Shown here piece after piece: positions 14,982 through 21,306 of a DNA stretch of 64,000 nt (within the stretch, counting starts at the first letter, position 1; each line of letters starts with the position of its first letter). Source of the DNA: Escherichia phage 310Ecol104PP. The notes below the pieces were generated by a model that had not been told where the DNA came from, ran no database searches, and saw nothing but the letters and a program-made list of their open reading frames with translations. The stretch lies in sequence record OR062946.1; one strand, 5' to 3'. Both the position numbers and the translations under genes were made by a program.

Positions 14982-15455
14982 TTATTTGAATGATTTGACG
15001 TACTGAATAGAACCTTTACTATTCACAAAGGCAATTTTACCATTTTTGTTATACATGGTAGCAGTACGTTGATAACCATAAGTTTGTTTACCAGATTGAT
15101 AACCAACTAATGCAAAATTATCTTCACCCATTTTATTCTGCTTAGCGCGAATGCGTTCATGGCCATGTGCCATAAGAACCTTAGCATCACCCGTTGCAAT
15201 GGATCTACGAGTTTTTTCATCTTCAACTGTATTAACAAAGTCGTCAAATGAATCAAATTTAGCATGAGATTTATTATACAGTTTTCCATCTACTGCATAA
15301 TTATATCCTTGTACATCCATCTCAACTTCTGTACCGTCATCCAATACAGCAGTGATTTTCTGTCCTTTTTTAAATTTCAAAAGATCAGTAAAAGATTCAG
15401 CAATAATTTGAGAATTAATAGCTGCTTCAGTAATAAATTCTTGATATGTTTTCAT
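14982..15455 (-). CDS. internal protein candidate with capsid targeting sequence (157 aa)
   Basis: N-terminus MKTYQEFITEA matches the T4 internal-protein CTS (MKTYQEFIAEA-type); sits at the T4 ipII/ipIII position next to e. Confidence 0.65.
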   Translation of the reverse strand: MKTYQEFITEAAINSQIIAESFTDLLKFKKGQKITAVLDDGTEVEMDVQGYNYAVDGKLYNKSHAKFDSFDDFVNTVEDEKTRRSIATGDAKVLMAHGHERIRAKQNKMGEDNFALVGYQSGKQTYGYQRTATMYNKNGKIAFVNSKGSIQYVKSFK

Positions 15456-15471
15456 GTGTATCCTTTAATTT

Positions 15472-15789
15472 TTATTCTTTAGGGAAGTTTTTAGAATATG
15501 CATCATAAAGCTTATTTCCAATACGGCGGAAAACTCTAGCCGCAAAACGATTTTCTGGGTTTTTAATCATGATTTGCATCATATAAGTACCCGCGTCAGA
15601 AAGAGCTTCTTCATAGTACCCGTTAATTTCTTTAAGAGTCCTACGTTTACCACCAGGACCATCAACAGTGATTTTCCATTTACCTGTAGAAGTGCGACTT
15701 GGCGGCTCAACTTGTTCAATCCAGATATAACCACCTTCTACACGTTGTCCTGCAGCAGATTCTGCAATAAATTCTTTATACGTTTTCAT
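15472..15789 (-). CDS. internal protein candidate with capsid targeting sequence (105 aa)
   Basis: N-terminus MKTYKEFIAES; adjacent to the other CTS gene and to e. Confidence 0.65.
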   Translation of the reverse strand: MKTYKEFIAESAAGQRVEGGYIWIEQVEPPSRTSTGKWKITVDGPGGKRRTLKEINGYYEEALSDAGTYMMQIMIKNPENRFAARVFRRIGNKLYDAYSKNFPKE

Positions 15790-15823
15790 GTGTTTCCTTT
15801 AAATATTTTAATTAGTAACTGTG

Positions 15824-15857
15824 AATATACTATCACAGTTCTAGGAGAAAGTAAACA
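15824..15857 (-). promoter_or_regulatory. T4-type early promoter upstream of the CTS genes (minus strand)
   Basis: gtaaac at 15851-15856 and atatactatc near 15825. Confidence 0.5.
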
Positions 15858-15860
15858 ACT

Positions 15861-16391
<531 letters not shown>

Positions 16392-16847
16392 TTAAAAGAG
16401 GTTGTTCATTATTCGGTAAAGTGAAGGACCCATCACATATTGCCACTGAGTGCGAGGAATAAGAGCAAAAGCATCCATCTCTGGAATCATAACGCCATCT
16501 TTATTTTCAAAATAAGACTCGCAATGGCAATTTCTGAACATCTCATGCTCTACTGGAATCGTATAATAAAACAACTGTAGGTCTTTATTACTAGAATATT
16601 TAAATACACCTAGGTCTTCTAGAAGGTCTGGATTATAATTGCTAAAACCGGTCTCTTCTAAGCATTCTCTTCGTGCTGCATCTAATGCGCTTAAATCAGA
16701 ATTTTCTACACGGCCCTTTGGAATATCCCAACGATGTGCCATCATTCCAGGCTTACGAGAACCAGTAACCCGACCCATAAATAAATCTTTATCTTCTGTC
16801 ATAAAAATAATACCAGCTGATAATGTTTTCATTTTAATTTCCTGCAT
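16392..16847 (-). CDS. nudE: Nudix hydrolase
   Basis: Nudix box GRVENSDLSALDAARRECLEETGF; 151 aa adjacent to e as in T4. Confidence 0.8.
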   Translation of the reverse strand: MQEIKMKTLSAGIIFMTEDKDLFMGRVTGSRKPGMMAHRWDIPKGRVENSDLSALDAARRECLEETGFSNYNPDLLEDLGVFKYSSNKDLQLFYYTIPVEHEMFRNCHCESYFENKDGVMIPEMDAFALIPRTQWQYVMGPSLYRIMNNLF

Positions 16848-17317
16848 TCAGTGATAAAGTTATTTAAATTTTGAGTATATTTCTTTTCATCAAAAATCTT
16901 TTGCTGCCTACGTAACCGCCATGGCATTTCAATGAACACGCACCATATTCCTGATAGTACTGCTGCTGTAAAAATATTAACAAGTATAATTAAAAGAATC
17001 CAATCTTCCGTTCTGCCTACTGGACTTTCTCCAAAGAAGCAAAATACAAATGATGTCACAGGAAGACTAATGATATACCACAGAAGAACCTTCTTATCTG
17101 TGAACCAATCAGCATTCGTTAACTTAGCGCGACCATTTTGAATACACACGAATTTATCATCTGTTACAGTAAATGGCTTAGCTGCTTGATATCCCATTCT
17201 AAACTCCCTAATTAATCGCTTCTTTGTATCTTCAGAACAACCATTCCAGTCAACTCTATCAACTGGAATGCCATCATCCCCATCATCTAAATCATACCAG
17301 CGAGTTTTTAAAATCAT
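16829..17317 (-). CDS. membrane protein (about 162 aa)
   Basis: Hydrophobic segments (LLWYIISLPVTSFVFCFF; ILLIILVNIFTAAVLSGIWCVFI); track start is TTG, ATG at 17315-17317. Confidence 0.5.
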   Translation of the reverse strand: MILKTRWYDLDDGDDGIPVDRVDWNGCSEDTKKRLIREFRMGYQAAKPFTVTDDKFVCIQNGRAKLTNADWFTDKKVLLWYIISLPVTSFVFCFFGESPVGRTEDWILLIILVNIFTAAVLSGIWCVFIEMPWRLRRQQKIFDEKKYTQNLNNFITECRKLK

Positions 17318-17676
17318 CTGATTTTCCTGCAATCACTCACAAACTCTTTCATTGCTTCATTTTCAATATAAGAAATGTAGCTATTATATTCCTTTAATTG
17401 TATTTTGTAATCCTTTTTTCTTTGCCAATTTATTTTAAAATTATCATAATGAAAATATAAAATGATACCAAAGAATGAAAATAATGAAATAATTTTAGTA
17501 TAACAAAGCTCATTCCAAACTTCTGTTATATTTACTGTGCCGTCGATGTTTAAAATAAGACAGTCAATTAACAATCCAAAAAGACTACCCGCAAGAGCTG
17601 CAGCCAACGCCACAGCAAAAATTAAAAATGACTCAGAAAACGAATATTTGACTTTATTTAGTTTTGGCTTTTGCAT
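17314..17676 (-). CDS. membrane protein (120 aa)
   Basis: Two hydrophobic segments (FLIFAVALAAALAGSLFGLLIDCLIL; IISLFSFFGIILYF). Confidence 0.5.
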   Translation of the reverse strand: MQKPKLNKVKYSFSESFLIFAVALAAALAGSLFGLLIDCLILNIDGTVNITEVWNELCYTKIISLFSFFGIILYFHYDNFKINWQRKKDYKIQLKEYNSYISYIENEAMKEFVSDCRKIR

Positions 17677-18050
17677 CGTGATTCCTTAACAAATTTCATA
17701 ATTTCATTAAATTCATACTCAGCAAGTTTAAGCTGGTGTTCCTTTTTAATCTTTTTACACTGAGCTTTCCAATCGTGTACACGTTTACGATAATGTCTTC
17801 CTTGATACCAGTATCCTACCCAATTTACGGGTACTAATAAAAGTGGAACTACCAATGGAAGAATTAGCATTAACACAAGTATTTCGCCAGAATCAATATC
17901 AGTCATAACATCTAAAACACCTCCAATAATCAATAGAATTACAAATGATATAAGTATAACAGGACCTATTAATACATCAGTAGAAATTATCTGGTGCTTT
18001 GATTCATACTTCAAAGGTTTACTTGGAAGGTATAGTGATGGTTTTGACAT
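17658..18050 (-). CDS. membrane protein (about 130 aa)
   Basis: Hydrophobic segments (LIGPVILISFVILLIIGGVL; LVLMLILPLVVPLLLVPV); ATG at 18048-18050. Confidence 0.5.
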   Translation of the reverse strand: MSKPSLYLPSKPLKYESKHQIISTDVLIGPVILISFVILLIIGGVLDVMTDIDSGEILVLMLILPLVVPLLLVPVNWVGYWYQGRHYRKRVHDWKAQCKKIKKEHQLKLAEYEFNEIMKFVKESRCKSQN

Positions 18051-18624
18051 ATTCTCTACATTCCTTAACAAATTTTTCTAATAATAAATCGCTTTCAAAA
18101 TTGGGATTTTCCACGAATTTATCAAAAAGATCATCAACAATAGTTAAGATATTCTTTTTACTAAGAATACGTTTATTTTCATGCTTTGTTTCAGAATCAA
18201 CTATAAGAGTAAAGAAATATTTCTTTCCCTGAAATTTTACCGTAGTATCAATATAAAATAAATTTGACTTTTGTAAATTACGTTTAAACCATGCGTCACT
18301 TAAACTATAAACGCCAAGATAATCATAATCGTCGTTTAAATAACAAACCGTCCATTCAGGAGAAATGAAATCAGTAAATTCAACATCAAAATCACATGTC
18401 AATGAATGAATTGATTCAATACTTTTAATGAGTATTCCAGGACGTATTAAAGACTTTTTACCTTTATAAAATCCAGAAAGACTTTCATCAGTTTCATATG
18501 AAGACCCCCAATAGTAATTACGTCCTTCTGCCATGCGTTTAAGAGCATTTAGTAATTGGTCTGGAACATCAACCTGTCTTTGGAACTCTTCAAACATTGA
18601 ATTGAAATCACTTTGCATTTTCAT
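18019..18624 (-). CDS. hypothetical protein (201 aa)
   Basis: ORF in array between nudE and tRNA cluster. Confidence 0.5.
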   Translation of the reverse strand: MKMQSDFNSMFEEFQRQVDVPDQLLNALKRMAEGRNYYWGSSYETDESLSGFYKGKKSLIRPGILIKSIESIHSLTCDFDVEFTDFISPEWTVCYLNDDYDYLGVYSLSDAWFKRNLQKSNLFYIDTTVKFQGKKYFFTLIVDSETKHENKRILSKKNILTIVDDLFDKFVENPNFESDLLLEKFVKECREYVKTITIPSK

Positions 18625-18665
18625 TCCTATTTACTCCAAGTAATAGGGGCCGAAGCCCCTTATCA

Positions 18666-19259
18666 TTATTTCAGAGAATTAATATATTCCTGGACATCGG
18701 CAGAGGTAGTTTCAACCCCGGAAATATTACCGTTAAAGGTTTCAACTCGAGCAAGGGTATCTTCAATATCAACCTTAGTCAGTGCTGCAATTTCAACTAC
18801 ATCATCGGCAGTACTAATTCCAAGGGCATTTGCCGCACGAGTTTCACGGATATATTCCAATTTAACTGCAAGTTCTTGACGAGCATCATCTAACTCAACT
18901 ACTTTCTTGGCGATTTCAATTCGCATTTCAGCATAACCGTCAGCTTTAGTAGTCAATTGCTCAGATGTTCGACGATATAGTAAACCGAGTTTAGCATGCA
19001 TTGTTACATCTTGACCTTCGGAAAGAAGTTTACGAATTTCACGCTCTTTTGATTCGGCCTGTCGATTCTTTTCGATAACAAGTTCACGAATACGTTTTTC
19101 TTCATTAATAGATTTAACAGAAGCAGTTTTTAGATCTTTAATTTTATCAAGTAGTTTTGCTGCTGCAACAGTATACTGTTCTTCAACAGATAGATTTTTA
19201 GCCATAGCAGAACCAAGTTTAGTGCGAATAAACTCAACAATTTTCTTCAGTGTGTTCAT
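18666..19259 (-). CDS. alpha-helical coiled-coil protein (197 aa), PspA-like in composition only
   Basis: Charged heptad-like sequence throughout; homology not established. Confidence 0.45.
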
Positions 19260-19302
19260 AGTATTTCCTTAGGTTGATTAAGATTTAAAATCTGTGGAAG
19301 AA

Positions 19303-19833
19303 TTATATCCCATTATTTGAGAGATGTAAACTATTTTTAATTTTACAAATTCGTTCAGCTTCATCGATAGCAGCATTAATAATGCTTTTAGCTATAGGAG
19401 TACTAATACTAGTAGCTTTTACACTTAACACGATTTCTTTATTTTTACCAGGCCAACCCCACGATTTTTCACCGTGAGTGCCTTTAATTACAGCAGACAC
19501 CTCAAGTGAGCATCCATTATCACATGTTTTTACATTAACAACCCAAGGGTCACTTTTCTCAATCGGTTTCTCAATCGGTTTATCCCAGTAAATATTAAGA
19601 ATACGTGGAACATCAAATTTGGCAGGACAAATCTTAACCGTAAGACCTTCGCTTTCTAGCCAATTAATAAGAGGGCGTTCATACAGGCGACGATGTGGGC
19701 TTGGGATTCGACAAGCCTTATGTCCGTTGCTTGCGGCTTCACTAAGCTGTTCTAATACCTGCTTTTGCATTATTGATAAAATACCATCAAAAGATCTTTC
19801 GGAAGTTTCATTCAGTTCAGTATAAAGAGACAT
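19303..19833 (-). CDS. hypothetical protein (176 aa)
   Basis: ORF in early array. Confidence 0.5.
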   Translation of the reverse strand: MSLYTELNETSERSFDGILSIMQKQVLEQLSEAASNGHKACRIPSPHRRLYERPLINWLESEGLTVKICPAKFDVPRILNIYWDKPIEKPIEKSDPWVVNVKTCDNGCSLEVSAVIKGTHGEKSWGWPGKNKEIVLSVKATSISTPIAKSIINAAIDEAERICKIKNSLHLSNNGI

Positions 19834-19895
19834 AACAGTTTCCTCATGTCGGTATAATTAGATAATATCACGTTTCTAATAGATAGATTGTATAC

Positions 19896-20234
19896 TTATT
19901 CTTCATCTGAATTCAGCGTAATAAAGTCATCGATGGCCTCTATAATAGCATCGTTAATAGCCAGTAAAATAAAATCGTCGTCAGTACCTTTATAAGATTC
20001 TGAAGCATTGATATATGCTTGATTGACGAGTTCCCAAGCCTTTTTAAAATAAGGAGCTTCATCATCAGGACAAATATCCCGCACACCTTCAAAGATACGA
20101 TTGGCATAATCTAACACCCATTGTACAGGCATGTTTTGAGAACGTTCGTTAAACTCTTTAAATTCCTTAGATTCAAAAAGCTCTTCAGGATAATAATTTC
20201 GATTACAAAAAGCTTTACTAAAGTTACGTTTCAT
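19896..20234 (-). CDS. hypothetical acidic protein (112 aa)
   Basis: ORF in early array. Confidence 0.45.
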   Translation of the reverse strand: MKRNFSKAFCNRNYYPEELFESKEFKEFNERSQNMPVQWVLDYANRIFEGVRDICPDDEAPYFKKAWELVNQAYINASESYKGTDDDFILLAINDAIIEAIDDFITLNSDEE

Positions 20235-20289
20235 AATGTTCTCCTCAAGTTACAGGCTCATAATATCTCAATCATGAGCCTGTGTAAAC

Positions 20290-20553
20290 TTATTTCATAT
20301 TATTGAAATATTCTTCTGCGATTTCGTCGTTATCATGGTAAACTTTAGAAGACAGTTTAACATAACCTTCTGCTGTGAACATGTTAATCACAACCTTTAC
20401 AGTATACCACTGACCGTCTTCATTACCCATTACTGCGTAAGTTTCAAACATCGGATGATCAGGACCGATAACTTTAATATCATTCACTGTACGACCGAAA
20501 TCTTCTGAAACACATTTCATAAAGAAGTTGAACAGTTCGCCGTAATTATCCAT
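20290..20553 (-). CDS. hypothetical protein (about 87 aa)
   Basis: ATG at 20551-20553 (MDNYGELF) preceded by GGAGAACGAA. Confidence 0.45.
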   Translation of the reverse strand: MDNYGELFNFFMKCVSEDFGRTVNDIKVIGPDHPMFETYAVMGNEDGQWYTVKVVINMFTAEGYVKLSSKVYHDNDEIAEEYFNNMK

Positions 20554-20593
20554 TTCGTTCTCCAAGTTGTTTTCTGTATCAGTAGTTGATAGT

Positions 20594-20627
20594 TGTATAG
20601 TACCACGGAAAGACAAGGATGTAAACT
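20594..20627 (-). promoter_or_regulatory. T4-type early promoter (minus strand)
   Basis: gtaaac at 20621-20626 and tatagtacc at 20596-20604. Confidence 0.5.
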
Positions 20628-20754
20628 GTTTTGTGAAAATTTTTTAAAAAGTTTTGGGGAATTCTAGGGCAGGGAGGGGAAATCAAAGGATAGGATAATA
20701 TATTATAAAGGGTAGAAACTAAATGATGTCTAGAGAGGCCTGGAAAGGCCTAGA

Positions 20755-20786
20755 TGCCAAAAAGCCCCAACCTTTTGGTTAGGGCT
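20755..20786 (-). terminator. rho-independent terminator (minus strand), copy 2 of a duplicated hairpin
   Basis: ccaaaaagccccaaccttttggttagggct; near-identical to the hairpin at 21314-21344. Confidence 0.5.
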
Positions 20787-20793
20787 AAGAATG

Positions 20794-21267
20794 TTATTTG
20801 ATTTGTTTAGCAGACCAAATGCGGTCTTTAATAATCTTTTGGATGTCTTCAACATACTCTAGGTCATGAGCATGTGGATTATCTTTGAAACTATAGGCAC
20901 GGGCTAACTTTTGGCCTTCGGTTTTGATTACTAAAAGCTCTTTAAGGATAGCTTCATATTTAGCGATAATTCCTTTAACAATATTTTTTTCTTGTGCAGC
21001 TTTATGATCTGCTTTAGGAGCAGGTTTACCCGAAGCCTTTGCAAAAGCAGCGCCAGTAGCAACTAAACTTTTCCAGGCCATACTAACTGCATTTCCCGTA
21101 AATCCTTCTGCTTTCATGTCGCGAGCAAACTGGAATCGTGATTCGTCAGAAGCATCTTTATAGGAATATTTACCCGCTGCAATGGCTGCTTTTGCGACAG
21201 CTTGAATTTCGGTGCTAGATGCTTCATTTAACACCGCTTCATTTAAAAATTGAGCATATGATTTCAT
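20794..21267 (-). CDS. internal-protein-like gene with CTS-like N-terminus (157 aa)
   Basis: N-terminus MKSYAQFLNEA resembles the CTS; Ala/Lys-rich; ATG at 21265-21267. Confidence 0.55.
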   Translation of the reverse strand: MKSYAQFLNEAVLNEASSTEIQAVAKAAIAAGKYSYKDASDESRFQFARDMKAEGFTGNAVSMAWKSLVATGAAFAKASGKPAPKADHKAAQEKNIVKGIIAKYEAILKELLVIKTEGQKLARAYSFKDNPHAHDLEYVEDIQKIIKDRIWSAKQIK

Positions 21268-21306
21268 CTTATTTCCTGTTTTAATTCGTGATTTAATATA
21301 CTACTA

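Follow-up and report, generated by a model that had tools for sequence, protein, structure and literature searches.

In T4-like phages, the small e.6 protein is, by profile comparison, a divergent homologue of PspA/IM30/Vipp1 within the ESCRT-III superfamily, the link being transitive through other members of its family and their profile, and the proteins encoded directly after it carry a common motif, F-[IV]-x-x-C-R, close to their C-termini. We tentatively read e.6 and its neighbors e.5, e.4, e.3 and e.2 as an early-expressed, Psp-like module that would preserve the inner membrane, with the tagged partners docking on e.6, and we hold this reading at somewhat short of probable. T4 is among the best-studied viruses, yet e.2 to e.6 are still annotated as hypothetical proteins, and to our knowledge the classical T4 rapid-lysis screens never picked them up.

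Layout of the e.2-e.6 cluster

The genes were examined in a window of 64,000 nucleotides, the whole stretch of DNA analyzed here, from a T4-like phage (Tequatrovirus). All five lie on the minus strand between e/nudE and the tRNA region, in the same gene order as in T4 (NC_000866), and are by synteny the orthologues of T4 e.2, e.3, e.4, e.5 and e.6. The features are listed below in the direction of transcription.

19302..19330, minus strand: candidate sigma-70-type (T4 early-like) promoter, TTTACA-17-TATAAT, just upstream of e.6, identified by consensus match alone
18666..19259, minus strand: e.6 orthologue, 197 aa, phrog_1203 (E 9e-87), divergent PspA/IM30/Vipp1-like protein (ESCRT-III superfamily) by profile comparison
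18645..18660, minus strand: GC-rich stem-loop GGGGCUUCGGCCCC with a UUCG tetraloop, between e.6 and e.5, an inverted repeat flagged by a scan
18019..18624, minus strand: e.5 orthologue, 201 aa, soluble, phrog_2607 (E 1e-107), FVKECR at residues 185-190 (nt 18055-18072)
17658..18050, minus strand: e.4 orthologue, 130 aa, two predicted TM helices, phrog_2604, motif variant FVKESR at nt 17676-17693
17314..17676, minus strand: e.3 orthologue, 120 aa, two predicted TM helices, phrog_2330, FVSDCR at nt 17326-17343
16829..17317, minus strand: e.2 orthologue, 162 aa, two predicted TM helices, phrog_2203 (E 1e-76), FITECR at nt 16841-16858

The five reading frames, whose boundaries an earlier note on this DNA had already drawn, stand unchanged, and they are real genes, because each matches a PHROG (E 1e-57 to 1e-108) and the 4.9-kb stretch that holds them is at least 80% covered in 334 phage records. 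Phage FriedrichMiescher is 98% identical over the whole stretch, and the e.2 stretch aligns with T4 at 96% mean column identity. In the T4 reference genome e.2 is frameshifted, and therefore at least this partner is evidently dispensable in the laboratory. The earlier note had placed the genes downstream of nudE, which is the reverse of their true order: being on the minus strand, they are located 5' of nudE, and hence upstream of it, with respect to transcription. Its impression of overlaps of a few nucleotides was well founded, as e.3/e.2 overlap by 4 nt, e.4/e.3 by 19 nt and e.5/e.4 by 32 nt, and an AGGA-type Shine-Dalgarno sequence precedes each downstream ATG of these pairs within the upstream gene. 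These short overlaps suggest translational coupling, in line with the co-translation that the note had proposed. It had also stated that orthology to characterized T4 e.2-e.8 proteins with unrelated roles would count against its view; this objection does not apply, as the orthologues are e.2 to e.6, for which our literature searches found no published function or phenotype. None of the five window proteins gave a significant match when scanned against Pfam, NCBIfam and PADLOC.

The promoter candidate upstream of e.6 ranks first among sites in the region, agreeing with the consensus at 11 of 12 positions. Presumably, e.6 to e.2 constitute a single early-transcribed module of T4-like phages.

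Relationship of e.6 to the PspA/IM30/Vipp1 family

The similarity between e.6 and PspA is remote, and it emerged only once the e.6 family had been widened by an exhaustive search of representatives. The Pfam model PF04012 (PspA_IM30) gives no match to the window's own e.6 at E up to 1, so that e.6 itself falls below the curated threshold, a profile of close relatives finds only insignificant matches in the PDB, and hhalign comparison of the close-relative alignment (A1) with E. coli PspA yields an E-value of 0.11. Among 1.84 billion representatives, a profile built from T4-like e.6 alone recovered 45 of about 200 aa. Two proteins, P0077 and P0078, belong to the e.6 family over their full length (E 1e-21 and 2e-20 with the T4-like profile), and both pass the PF04012 gathering score of 33.9 bits (35.1 and 39.0 bits, respectively), their residues 6-146 aligning to model positions 2-143 and their next best Pfam matches having E-values above 0.03. 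The wider family profile (A2) aligns in register with Synechocystis Vipp1 (residues 1-146 to 1-147, E 7.9e-5), a match that carries high composition bias, as well as with residues 1-57 of E. coli PspA (E 5e-4). PspA loci from bacterial genomes were 83-100% identical to each other and consequently gave no useful PspA profile.

Structural modeling is compatible with this relationship. The earlier note had described the 197-aa protein as all-helical and recommended its comparison with PspA, Vipp1 and ESCRT-III, and both suggestions proved apt. The AlphaFold2 model (mean pLDDT 77) is all-helical: helix a0 (residues 2-22) precedes a hairpin made up of residues 25-80 and 86-145, and the short helices at the C-terminus adopt an a4/a5 layout. 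A Foldseek search with this model returned Vipp1 for PDB matches 1-8 and next CdvB2, an ESCRT-III protein of archaea. Among solved structures, the best sequence and fold matches to e.6 are Vipp1/IM30 of cyanobacteria and chloroplasts, together with ESCRT-III. In the model, e.6 appears to follow the helix order of Vipp1 and to place its hairpin tip at the corresponding position (about residues 81-86). Identity is only 15-18%, and the Vipp1 matches end at about residue 146, leaving the C-terminal third of e.6 unmatched. Residues 2-19 of a0 are amphipathic with a hydrophobic moment of 0.45, compared with 0.42 for E. coli PspA and 0.57 for Vipp1; as about 7% of shuffles reach this value, it offers modest support. 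Two hydropathy scales identified no membrane-spanning candidate in e.6. The protein is highly conserved (68% mean column identity in A1), its C-terminal end, Y-x-x-S-L-K, is nearly invariant and its sequence contains no cysteine. The GenBank label "host specificity protein" found no support in this analysis.

The PspA homology of the e.6 PHROG family had been noted before, which lends independent support. Gendre et al. 2022 (PMC9409062) linked phrog_1203 to PspA by HHpred, and their "phage-encoded PspA", Kuttervirus Gp_125, falls into the same PHROG as e.6. A Kuttervirus homologue is likewise labeled "PspA/IM30 family protein" in GenBank (MT499896). As far as the available part of that paper extends, one Kuttervirus protein is treated in passing, and T4 e.6, the partner genes and the motif go unmentioned (PMC9409062).

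Predicted two-helix membrane proteins and the soluble e.5

The two hydrophobic helices that had been noticed in each of the three small proteins are supported by two hydropathy scales, which agree on exactly two membrane-spanning candidates apiece in e.2, e.3 and e.4. The second e.3 helix is the weakest of these (Kyte-Doolittle 1.78; Hessa-scale sum +1.55). In e.2, whose PHROG (phrog_2203) is annotated as "membrane protein", about 75 residues at the N-terminus form a soluble part ahead of the helices. The interhelix loops are acidic, with no K/R in e.3 or e.4 and no more than one in e.2; together with the basic flanks, this predicts that the N and C ends of all three proteins are cytoplasmic.

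On profile comparison e.2, e.3 and e.4 are paralogous inner-membrane proteins, their profile-profile similarity being significant only in the C-terminal tail. The e.3 protein also matches the PHROG of e.4, phrog_2604 (E 0.002), and hhalign aligns it with the e.4 set over the C-terminal tail only (E 1.8e-5), while e.2 aligns with the e.3 set over the last 20 residues (E 3.4e-6) and e.4 is matched by profiles of the two-helix family. Hydrophobic composition was considered as a source of this signal and rejected, as 46 other ORFs from the same loci with at least two hydrophobic segments remained unmatched.

No membrane-spanning candidate was found in e.5 with either hydropathy scale. Across genera, its F185 and C189 are invariant and R190 is nearly so. 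Its AlphaFold2 model was unusable (pLDDT 46.6), a profile search of the PDB gave no match and word-indexed searches found few diverse relatives. The precomputed Pfam accession PF26876 is attached to e.5 relatives. The GenBank label "site-specific RNA endonuclease" was dismissed, since comparison of e.5 to T4 RegB gave an E-value of 0.43.

A shared C-terminal motif

The motif F-[IV]-x-x-C-R is found near the C-terminus of e.2, e.3, e.5 and, as a variant, e.4, along with other small ORFs of the island. Its strict form occurs in 118 of the 1290 ORFs of the 40 examined loci, and in 117 of these it is located no more than 20 residues from the C-terminus. Of the 117, 64 are two-helix proteins, 36 are e.5 and 17 are other small proteins encoded in the island. 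Over the approximately 114 kb scanned (the 64-kb window and T4 1-50 kb), the strict motif is present only in e.2, e.3 and e.5. The codons encoding it are varied, with TGT used 49 times vs. 41 for TGC, TTT 72 times vs. 26 for TTC, and Arg specified by both CGN and AGR. From this synonymous codon variety it follows that the motif is under selection at the protein level. A constraint imposed by Shine-Dalgarno sequences was ruled out as its source, both by the codon variety and by the shifting position of the ribosome-binding site, which falls on differing motif codons from gene to gene. In some members the Cys is swapped for S, V, M, I or A. The conserved positions i, i+1, i+4 and i+5 would be expected to occupy one face of a helix. 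No description of the motif was found in the literature searches that were run.

The motif sits on proteins with otherwise unrelated bodies, and its presence on both the soluble e.5 and the membrane proteins, together with its confinement to the island, argues for a common partner. We propose that this partner is e.6, onto which one helix face of the motif would dock. It is also conceivable, albeit improbable, that the motif is instead a signal for a host machine, either a protease or chaperone such as FtsH, ClpXP or Lon or a localization factor, and that e.6 either works by itself or targets the host Psp system, perhaps titrating PspF/PspBC. A location at or near the extreme C-terminus in 117 of 118 cases is indeed reminiscent of degradation tags, the carriers are unrelated outside the motif, and e.6 has no cysteine with which the motif Cys could pair. 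However, in two different phage families the motif is found alongside an e.6-family gene, its spacing is well suited to helix-on-helix packing, and we know of no degron that resembles it.

Both the motif that ties these genes together and the paralogy of the three membrane proteins had escaped the earlier note.

Conservation and spread among phages

Over a thousand sequenced genomes of T4-like phages contain the conserved e.2-e.6 block. An e.5-family ORF directly follows e.6 in 39 of 40 loci, and genes of the two-helix family lie no more than 6 kb away in 34 of the 40. The partner set differs strongly between genera, ranging from one to four or more two-helix genes accompanied by extra tagged ORFs. 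In Aeromonas-type loci, e.6 and e.5 are present, but two-helix genes are absent within 6 kb. In the Kutterviruses, genes for two single-pass membrane proteins come after a PspA-like gene; these proteins end in I-V-x-x-A-R, as compared with F-I-x-x-C-R in T4-like phages, and no homology was detectable between e.5 and the 190-aa Kuttervirus membrane protein beyond the motif region.

The absence of two-helix genes near the Aeromonas-type loci could be taken to mean that e.2, e.3 and e.4 are independent membrane proteins for superinfection exclusion or lysis timing, functionally unconnected to e.5 and e.6 and adjacent to them merely through the packing of T4 accessory genes. The cluster does adjoin the endolysin gene e, and T4 encodes similar small membrane proteins, Imm and Sp, elsewhere in its genome. 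We nevertheless consider this explanation quite unlikely. Comparisons with Pfam and PHROG revealed no match of e.2-e.4 to the holin/antiholin (T, RI), Imm or Sp families, nor to any lysis or exclusion family, and no late promoter (TATAAATA) exists at 16400-21300 on the strand of the cluster, the late-promoter motif being found only directly upstream of e, outside e.2-e.6. Furthermore, the C-terminal motif, confined to the island, is common to the membrane proteins and the soluble e.5, and Kutterviruses, which are unrelated, show this arrangement as well. The lack of family matches and of a late promoter in the cluster likewise tells against superinfection exclusion and holin/antiholin control, two of the roles put forward in the earlier note. 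These roles, like the inhibition of membrane-bound defense effectors that it also suggested, are generic and have no specific support here.

Comparison with bacterial systems

The likeness of the phage cluster to Psp- and Lia-type operons is one of architecture and gene order only, rather than of partner homology. E. coli PspA (222 aa) and e.6 (197 aa) both belong to the PspA/IM30 family and combine an amphipathic helix at the N-terminus with a long hairpin, in e.6 a modeled one, and in pspABCD, as in the phage cluster, genes for small inner-membrane proteins directly follow that of the effector in an operon-like unit. Unlike the psp operon, the phage cluster encodes membrane proteins with two TM helices and no PspB/PspC family match, has neither a PspF-like regulator nor sigma-54 control, and includes an extra soluble partner, e.5. 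The PspB, PspC, LiaI/LiaF and PspM families of Pfam and NCBIfam were all unmatched by e.2-e.5 at E up to 1. We know of no C-terminal motif common to all partners in any Psp system.

For e.2-e.4, the closest functional analogy is the lia system of Bacillus subtilis, in which the PspA homologue LiaH is encoded beside the small membrane protein LiaI, by which it is tethered to the membrane (PMC11237479). By this analogy, e.2-e.4 may serve as membrane anchors. The LiaI-LiaF-TM domain is a four-helix region (PMC11237479), whereas the phage proteins have two helices and no detectable homology to it. The gene order is also reversed, with liaI before liaH, whereas e.6 precedes its partners.

Proposed function

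Following infection, T4 shuts off host transcription, which leaves the cell unable to induce its sigma-54-dependent psp operon. For this reason, the phage may supply a Psp-like system of its own, which would prevent the inner membrane from leaking and sustain the proton-motive force while infection proceeds. DNA injection, superinfection, holin accumulation and membrane-depolarizing abortive-infection effectors could be among the threats to be countered. The membrane-embedded motif carriers e.2-e.4 would draw e.6 polymers to the inner membrane or nucleate them there, in the manner of LiaI anchoring LiaH or PspB/PspC engaging PspA. The soluble e.5 would compete for the same site and thereby hold e.6 in reserve, by analogy with the switching of PspA between PspF and PspBC. 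A more ambitious version of this scheme, which is possible but in our view doubtful, envisions a viral ESCRT-III-superfamily machine in T4-like phages and, by way of the motif variant, in Kutterviruses. In such a machine, an e.6 polymer would be steered through a single C-terminal docking peptide by the diversifying adaptors e.2-e.5 and further tagged proteins, and switching between soluble and membrane adaptors would set where and when the inner membrane is sealed, thus holding the proton-motive force after host shut-off and resisting membrane-depolarizing abortive infection.

Alternatively, the module might be devoted specifically to neutralizing abortive-infection systems that depolarize or permeabilize the inner membrane, with e.6 sealing the lesions and the diversifying partners recognizing different effectors. 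Such an anti-defense role was proposed for the phage PspA homologue by Gendre et al. 2022 (PMC9409062). Partner copy number and sequence vary strongly between genera, a pattern often seen in counter-defense loci, and the genes are apparently early and, with e.2 broken in T4, at least partly dispensable. However, a PADLOC scan returned no model for any of the five proteins, and the high conservation of e.6 fits a housekeeping function as well as an arms race. We regard this specialized role as unlikely.

Should the preferred reading of a Psp-like module prove correct, T4-like phages would encode a "phage shock" effector of their own along with tagged partners, some in the membrane and some soluble, and the block maintained in so many of their genomes would be explained. 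The module would then provide a compact and tractable system for studying how short peptide motifs target PspA/ESCRT-III-type polymers to membranes, and it would point to a phage route against defenses that kill by membrane depolarization. The motif itself is an immediately testable handle.

Possible RNA signals within the cluster

At its downstream end, the stop codon of e.2 overlaps a nudE ATG as ATGA. The stem-loop GGGGCUUCGGCCCC between e.6 and e.5 is not followed by a U-run on the coding strand, and may represent an RNA 3'-end or stability element, or else a partial terminator.

Organization of the e.2-e.6 cluster

The window derives from a Tequatrovirus, and its stretch 15800-20700 shares 98% identity with Escherichia phage FriedrichMiescher (Bas39), and 334 phage records span 80% or more of it. 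All genes in this stretch are carried on the minus strand. The five ORFs that an earlier note had singled out are confirmed and are recognizable, by both order and sequence, as orthologues of T4 e.2-e.6, and the block lies between nudE/e and the tRNA region:

16829-17317, minus strand: e.2 orthologue (order and sequence versus T4), end FITECRKLK
17314-17676, minus strand: e.3 orthologue (order and sequence versus T4), end FVSDCRKIR
17658-18050, minus strand: e.4 orthologue (order and sequence versus T4), end FVKESRCKSQN
18019-18624, minus strand: e.5 orthologue (order and sequence versus T4), end FVKECREYVK...
18666-19259, minus strand: e.6 orthologue (order and sequence versus T4)

The same note had placed these genes downstream of nudE, which inverts the arrangement, as they lie upstream of it in the direction of transcription. 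Successive genes overlap by 32 (e.5/e.4), 19 (e.4/e.3) and 4 nt (e.3/e.2), and each downstream ATG is preceded by an AGGA-type ribosome-binding site located within the upstream gene. Likewise, the stop codon of e.2 overlaps a nudE ATG as ATGA. This ATG, at 16832, follows an AGGAAA site and looks like the likelier nudE start (146-aa product); the annotated start is the ATG at 16847 (MQEIKM...), inside e.2.

A strong sigma-70-like promoter candidate, matching the consensus at 11 of 12 positions, is found directly upstream of e.6. The late-promoter motif TATAAATA is absent inside the cluster and has its sole occurrence at 16369-16389, directly upstream of e. Because of this promoter and the presence of the late motif only at e, e.2-e.6 appear to constitute an early or middle unit, apart from late endolysin expression. 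Between e.6 and e.5 (18645-18660), GGGGCUUCGGCCCC forms a perfect hairpin capped by a UUCG tetraloop. A U-run is absent on the coding strand, and the hairpin could provide a stable 3' end for the e.6 transcript and thereby yield more e.6 than partner proteins. A terminator is annotated under e.6 in one related record (H47).

In the T4 reference, e.2 (NC_000866 67472-67960; locus L001, 3473-3961) carries, relative to the window, a 1-nt deletion followed about 77 nt later by a 1-nt insertion. Only a 102-aa N-terminal product is annotated, the motif-bearing end being a separate 36-aa ORF, and most relatives encode an intact 162-aa e.2. Since the gene is frameshifted in this reference, at least e.2 is dispensable in the laboratory.

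e.6, a divergent PspA/IM30/Vipp1 homologue

The idea that the coiled-coil protein should be compared with PspA proved correct: a family profile and members passing the Pfam threshold together show a PspA-family ancestry. Alone, the window e.6 has no Pfam match, and a profile of its close relatives gives insignificant Vipp1 matches. An exhaustive search with that profile recovered 45 representatives among 1.84 billion proteins; the family is small and uniform, with full-length members of about 200 aa. Two of its members, which that profile recovered over their full length at E 1e-21 and 2e-20, exceed the Pfam PspA_IM30 gathering score, with residue 6 aligned to model position 2 and no rival family close. 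Once widened, the profile aligns with Synechocystis Vipp1 at E 7.9e-5 (1-146 to 1-147), with E. coli PspA 1-57 at 5e-4 and with other Vipp1/PspA chains at about 1e-3. A weak, collinear match extends to the a4/a5 region as well. The AlphaFold2 model (pLDDT 77) consists of a0 (2-22), a hairpin (25-80, 86-145) and short C-terminal helices, and a0 is comparable in amphipathicity to that of PspA and Vipp1. With this model, Vipp1 occupies the top eight Foldseek matches in the PDB, followed by archaeal CdvB2, and the first annotated match among viral models is a "PspA/IM30 family protein".

The PspA homology of the e.6 family is already known, yet unnoticed for T4's protein, which is still labeled a conserved hypothetical protein; one Kuttervirus record carries a PspA/IM30 annotation. 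e.6 belongs to phrog_1203, which Gendre et al. 2022 (PMC9409062) describe as homologous to PspA by HHpred, suggesting an anti-abortive-infection role. In keeping with that suggestion, one alternative to the function proposed below would be an anti-defence specialisation of the same machine.

At its C-terminus, e.6 also carries Y-x-x-S-L-K (residues 192-197; 18669-18686), which is near-invariant across the T4-like family and recurs in Kuttervirus homologues as NYLASLVK and NYLANLSK, suggesting a second conserved C-terminal peptide.

Membrane proteins and a common C-terminal motif

The two hydrophobic helices originally noted in each small protein are seen on both Kyte-Doolittle and Hessa-type scales in e.2, e.3 and e.4, the second helix of e.3 being the weakest; neither scale gives a membrane-spanning candidate in e.5 or e.6. 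Each helix pair is joined by a short acidic loop holding one K/R at most (e.3 and e.4 have none) and is bordered by basic flanks, so the positive-inside rule predicts that both termini are cytoplasmic. Iterative profiles within 40 related loci fuse e.2, e.3 and e.4 into one family, and match only these three in the window; none of 46 further hydrophobic ORFs in the loci is matched. In profile-profile comparisons of strict orthologue sets (e.2 versus e.3, E 3e-6; e.3 versus e.4, E 2e-5), significance is confined to the cytoplasmic C-terminal tail, and paralogy therefore rests on the common architecture plus this tail.

The tail contains a cluster-specific motif, selected at the protein level and common to e.2-e.4 and the soluble e.5. 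A scan of the 40 loci finds the strict pattern [FW][IV]xxC[RK] in 118 of 1290 ORFs, with 117 of the 118 having it within 20 residues of the C-terminus; these comprise 64 two-helix proteins, 36 e.5-family members and 17 additional small soluble proteins encoded in the island. In the 64-kb window and T4 positions 1-50 kb, only e.2, e.3 and e.5 contain it. Across e.5 proteins from different genera with <20% identity, F185 and C189 are among four invariant residues and R190 is near-invariant. A by-product of ribosome-binding sites is ruled out, as the Shine-Dalgarno sequence coincides with K-E in e.5 and e.4 versus C-R-K in e.3 and e.2. Synonymous codons are used freely among 104 distinct instances (TGT 49 versus TGC 41; TTT 72 versus TTC 26), with Arg encoded as CGN or AGR. 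The conserved positions i, i+1, i+4 and i+5 form one helix face. In some members S, V, M, I or A stands in for Cys, which suggests packing rather than chemistry.

The other soluble carriers (92-162 aa; for example, L019 8848-9147, L024 8665-8952, L029 6636-6917 and L033 7830-8225, in related loci of other genera) lie downstream of e.6, have a C-terminal F-I-x-x-C-R and are unmatched by e.5 and two-helix profiles. In L029, such an ORF of 93 aa stands where e.5 would be. e.5 itself has no recognisable fold or family by family search, PDB profile search or AlphaFold2 model. Some GenBank records (e.g. PV390659) label it a "site-specific RNA endonuclease", and it has no similarity to T4 RegB; the "host specificity protein" label on e.6 (e.g. 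PV390659; L003 2718-3961) is likewise without support here. Both labels look like propagated annotation errors.

Conservation and possible function

Phage records with an e.6 relative number 1106, those listed being large myovirus genomes of about 150-230 kb or fragments. An e.5-family gene directly follows e.6 in 39 of 40 loci, and 34 of the 40 have two-helix genes within 6 kb, the exceptions being Aeromonas-type phages. In several genera, additional genes separate the e.2 orthologue from the first two-helix genes. In RB43 (NC_007023; L127 3394-3986), e.6 appears split, with a 54-aa ORF for the N-terminal part and the annotated 97-aa ORF for the C-terminal part, owing to a frameshift or an error in sequencing, and is followed by one small ORF and then an e.5-like protein ending in FIHSCK. 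In Kutterviruses (Ackermannviridae), a PspA-like gene precedes two single-pass membrane proteins with cytoplasmic ends that contain IVDRAR and IVDKAR, or IIRRAR and IIKQAR; relative to the T4-like motif, the spacing is identical, whereas Ala replaces Cys.

We propose the motif as a docking helix for e.6. Through it, the two-helix proteins would tether e.6 to the inner membrane or nucleate it there, in the manner of LiaI with LiaH and of PspBC with PspA, with e.5 perhaps a competing soluble holder. T4 shuts off host transcription, so the host psp response would no longer be inducible; the phage module may stand in for it and preserve membrane integrity during infection or against defences that depolarise the membrane. 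Alternatively, the motif might be read by a host factor instead of e.6, or the small proteins might have independent roles. The literature searched contained no interaction, localisation or phenotype data on e.2-e.6, nor any earlier description of this architecture of motif-bearing partners.

Neighboring genes

Directly upstream of e.6 is a 176-aa ORF (19303-19833; phrog_6869) with a KPIEKPIEK repeat. Relatives of 128-202 aa occur in part of the related loci; in T4, e.7 is directly next to e.6, without a gene of this size. The ORFs 14982-15455, 15472-15789 and 20794-21267 start with MKTYQEFI..., MKTYKEFI... and MKSYAQFL..., a start that presumably resembles the capsid-targeting sequence at the N-terminus of T4 internal proteins. 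Of these ORFs, two sit at the ipII/ipIII position beside e, and because their lengths are unlike those of T4's genes, the internal-protein set probably differs from that of T4.
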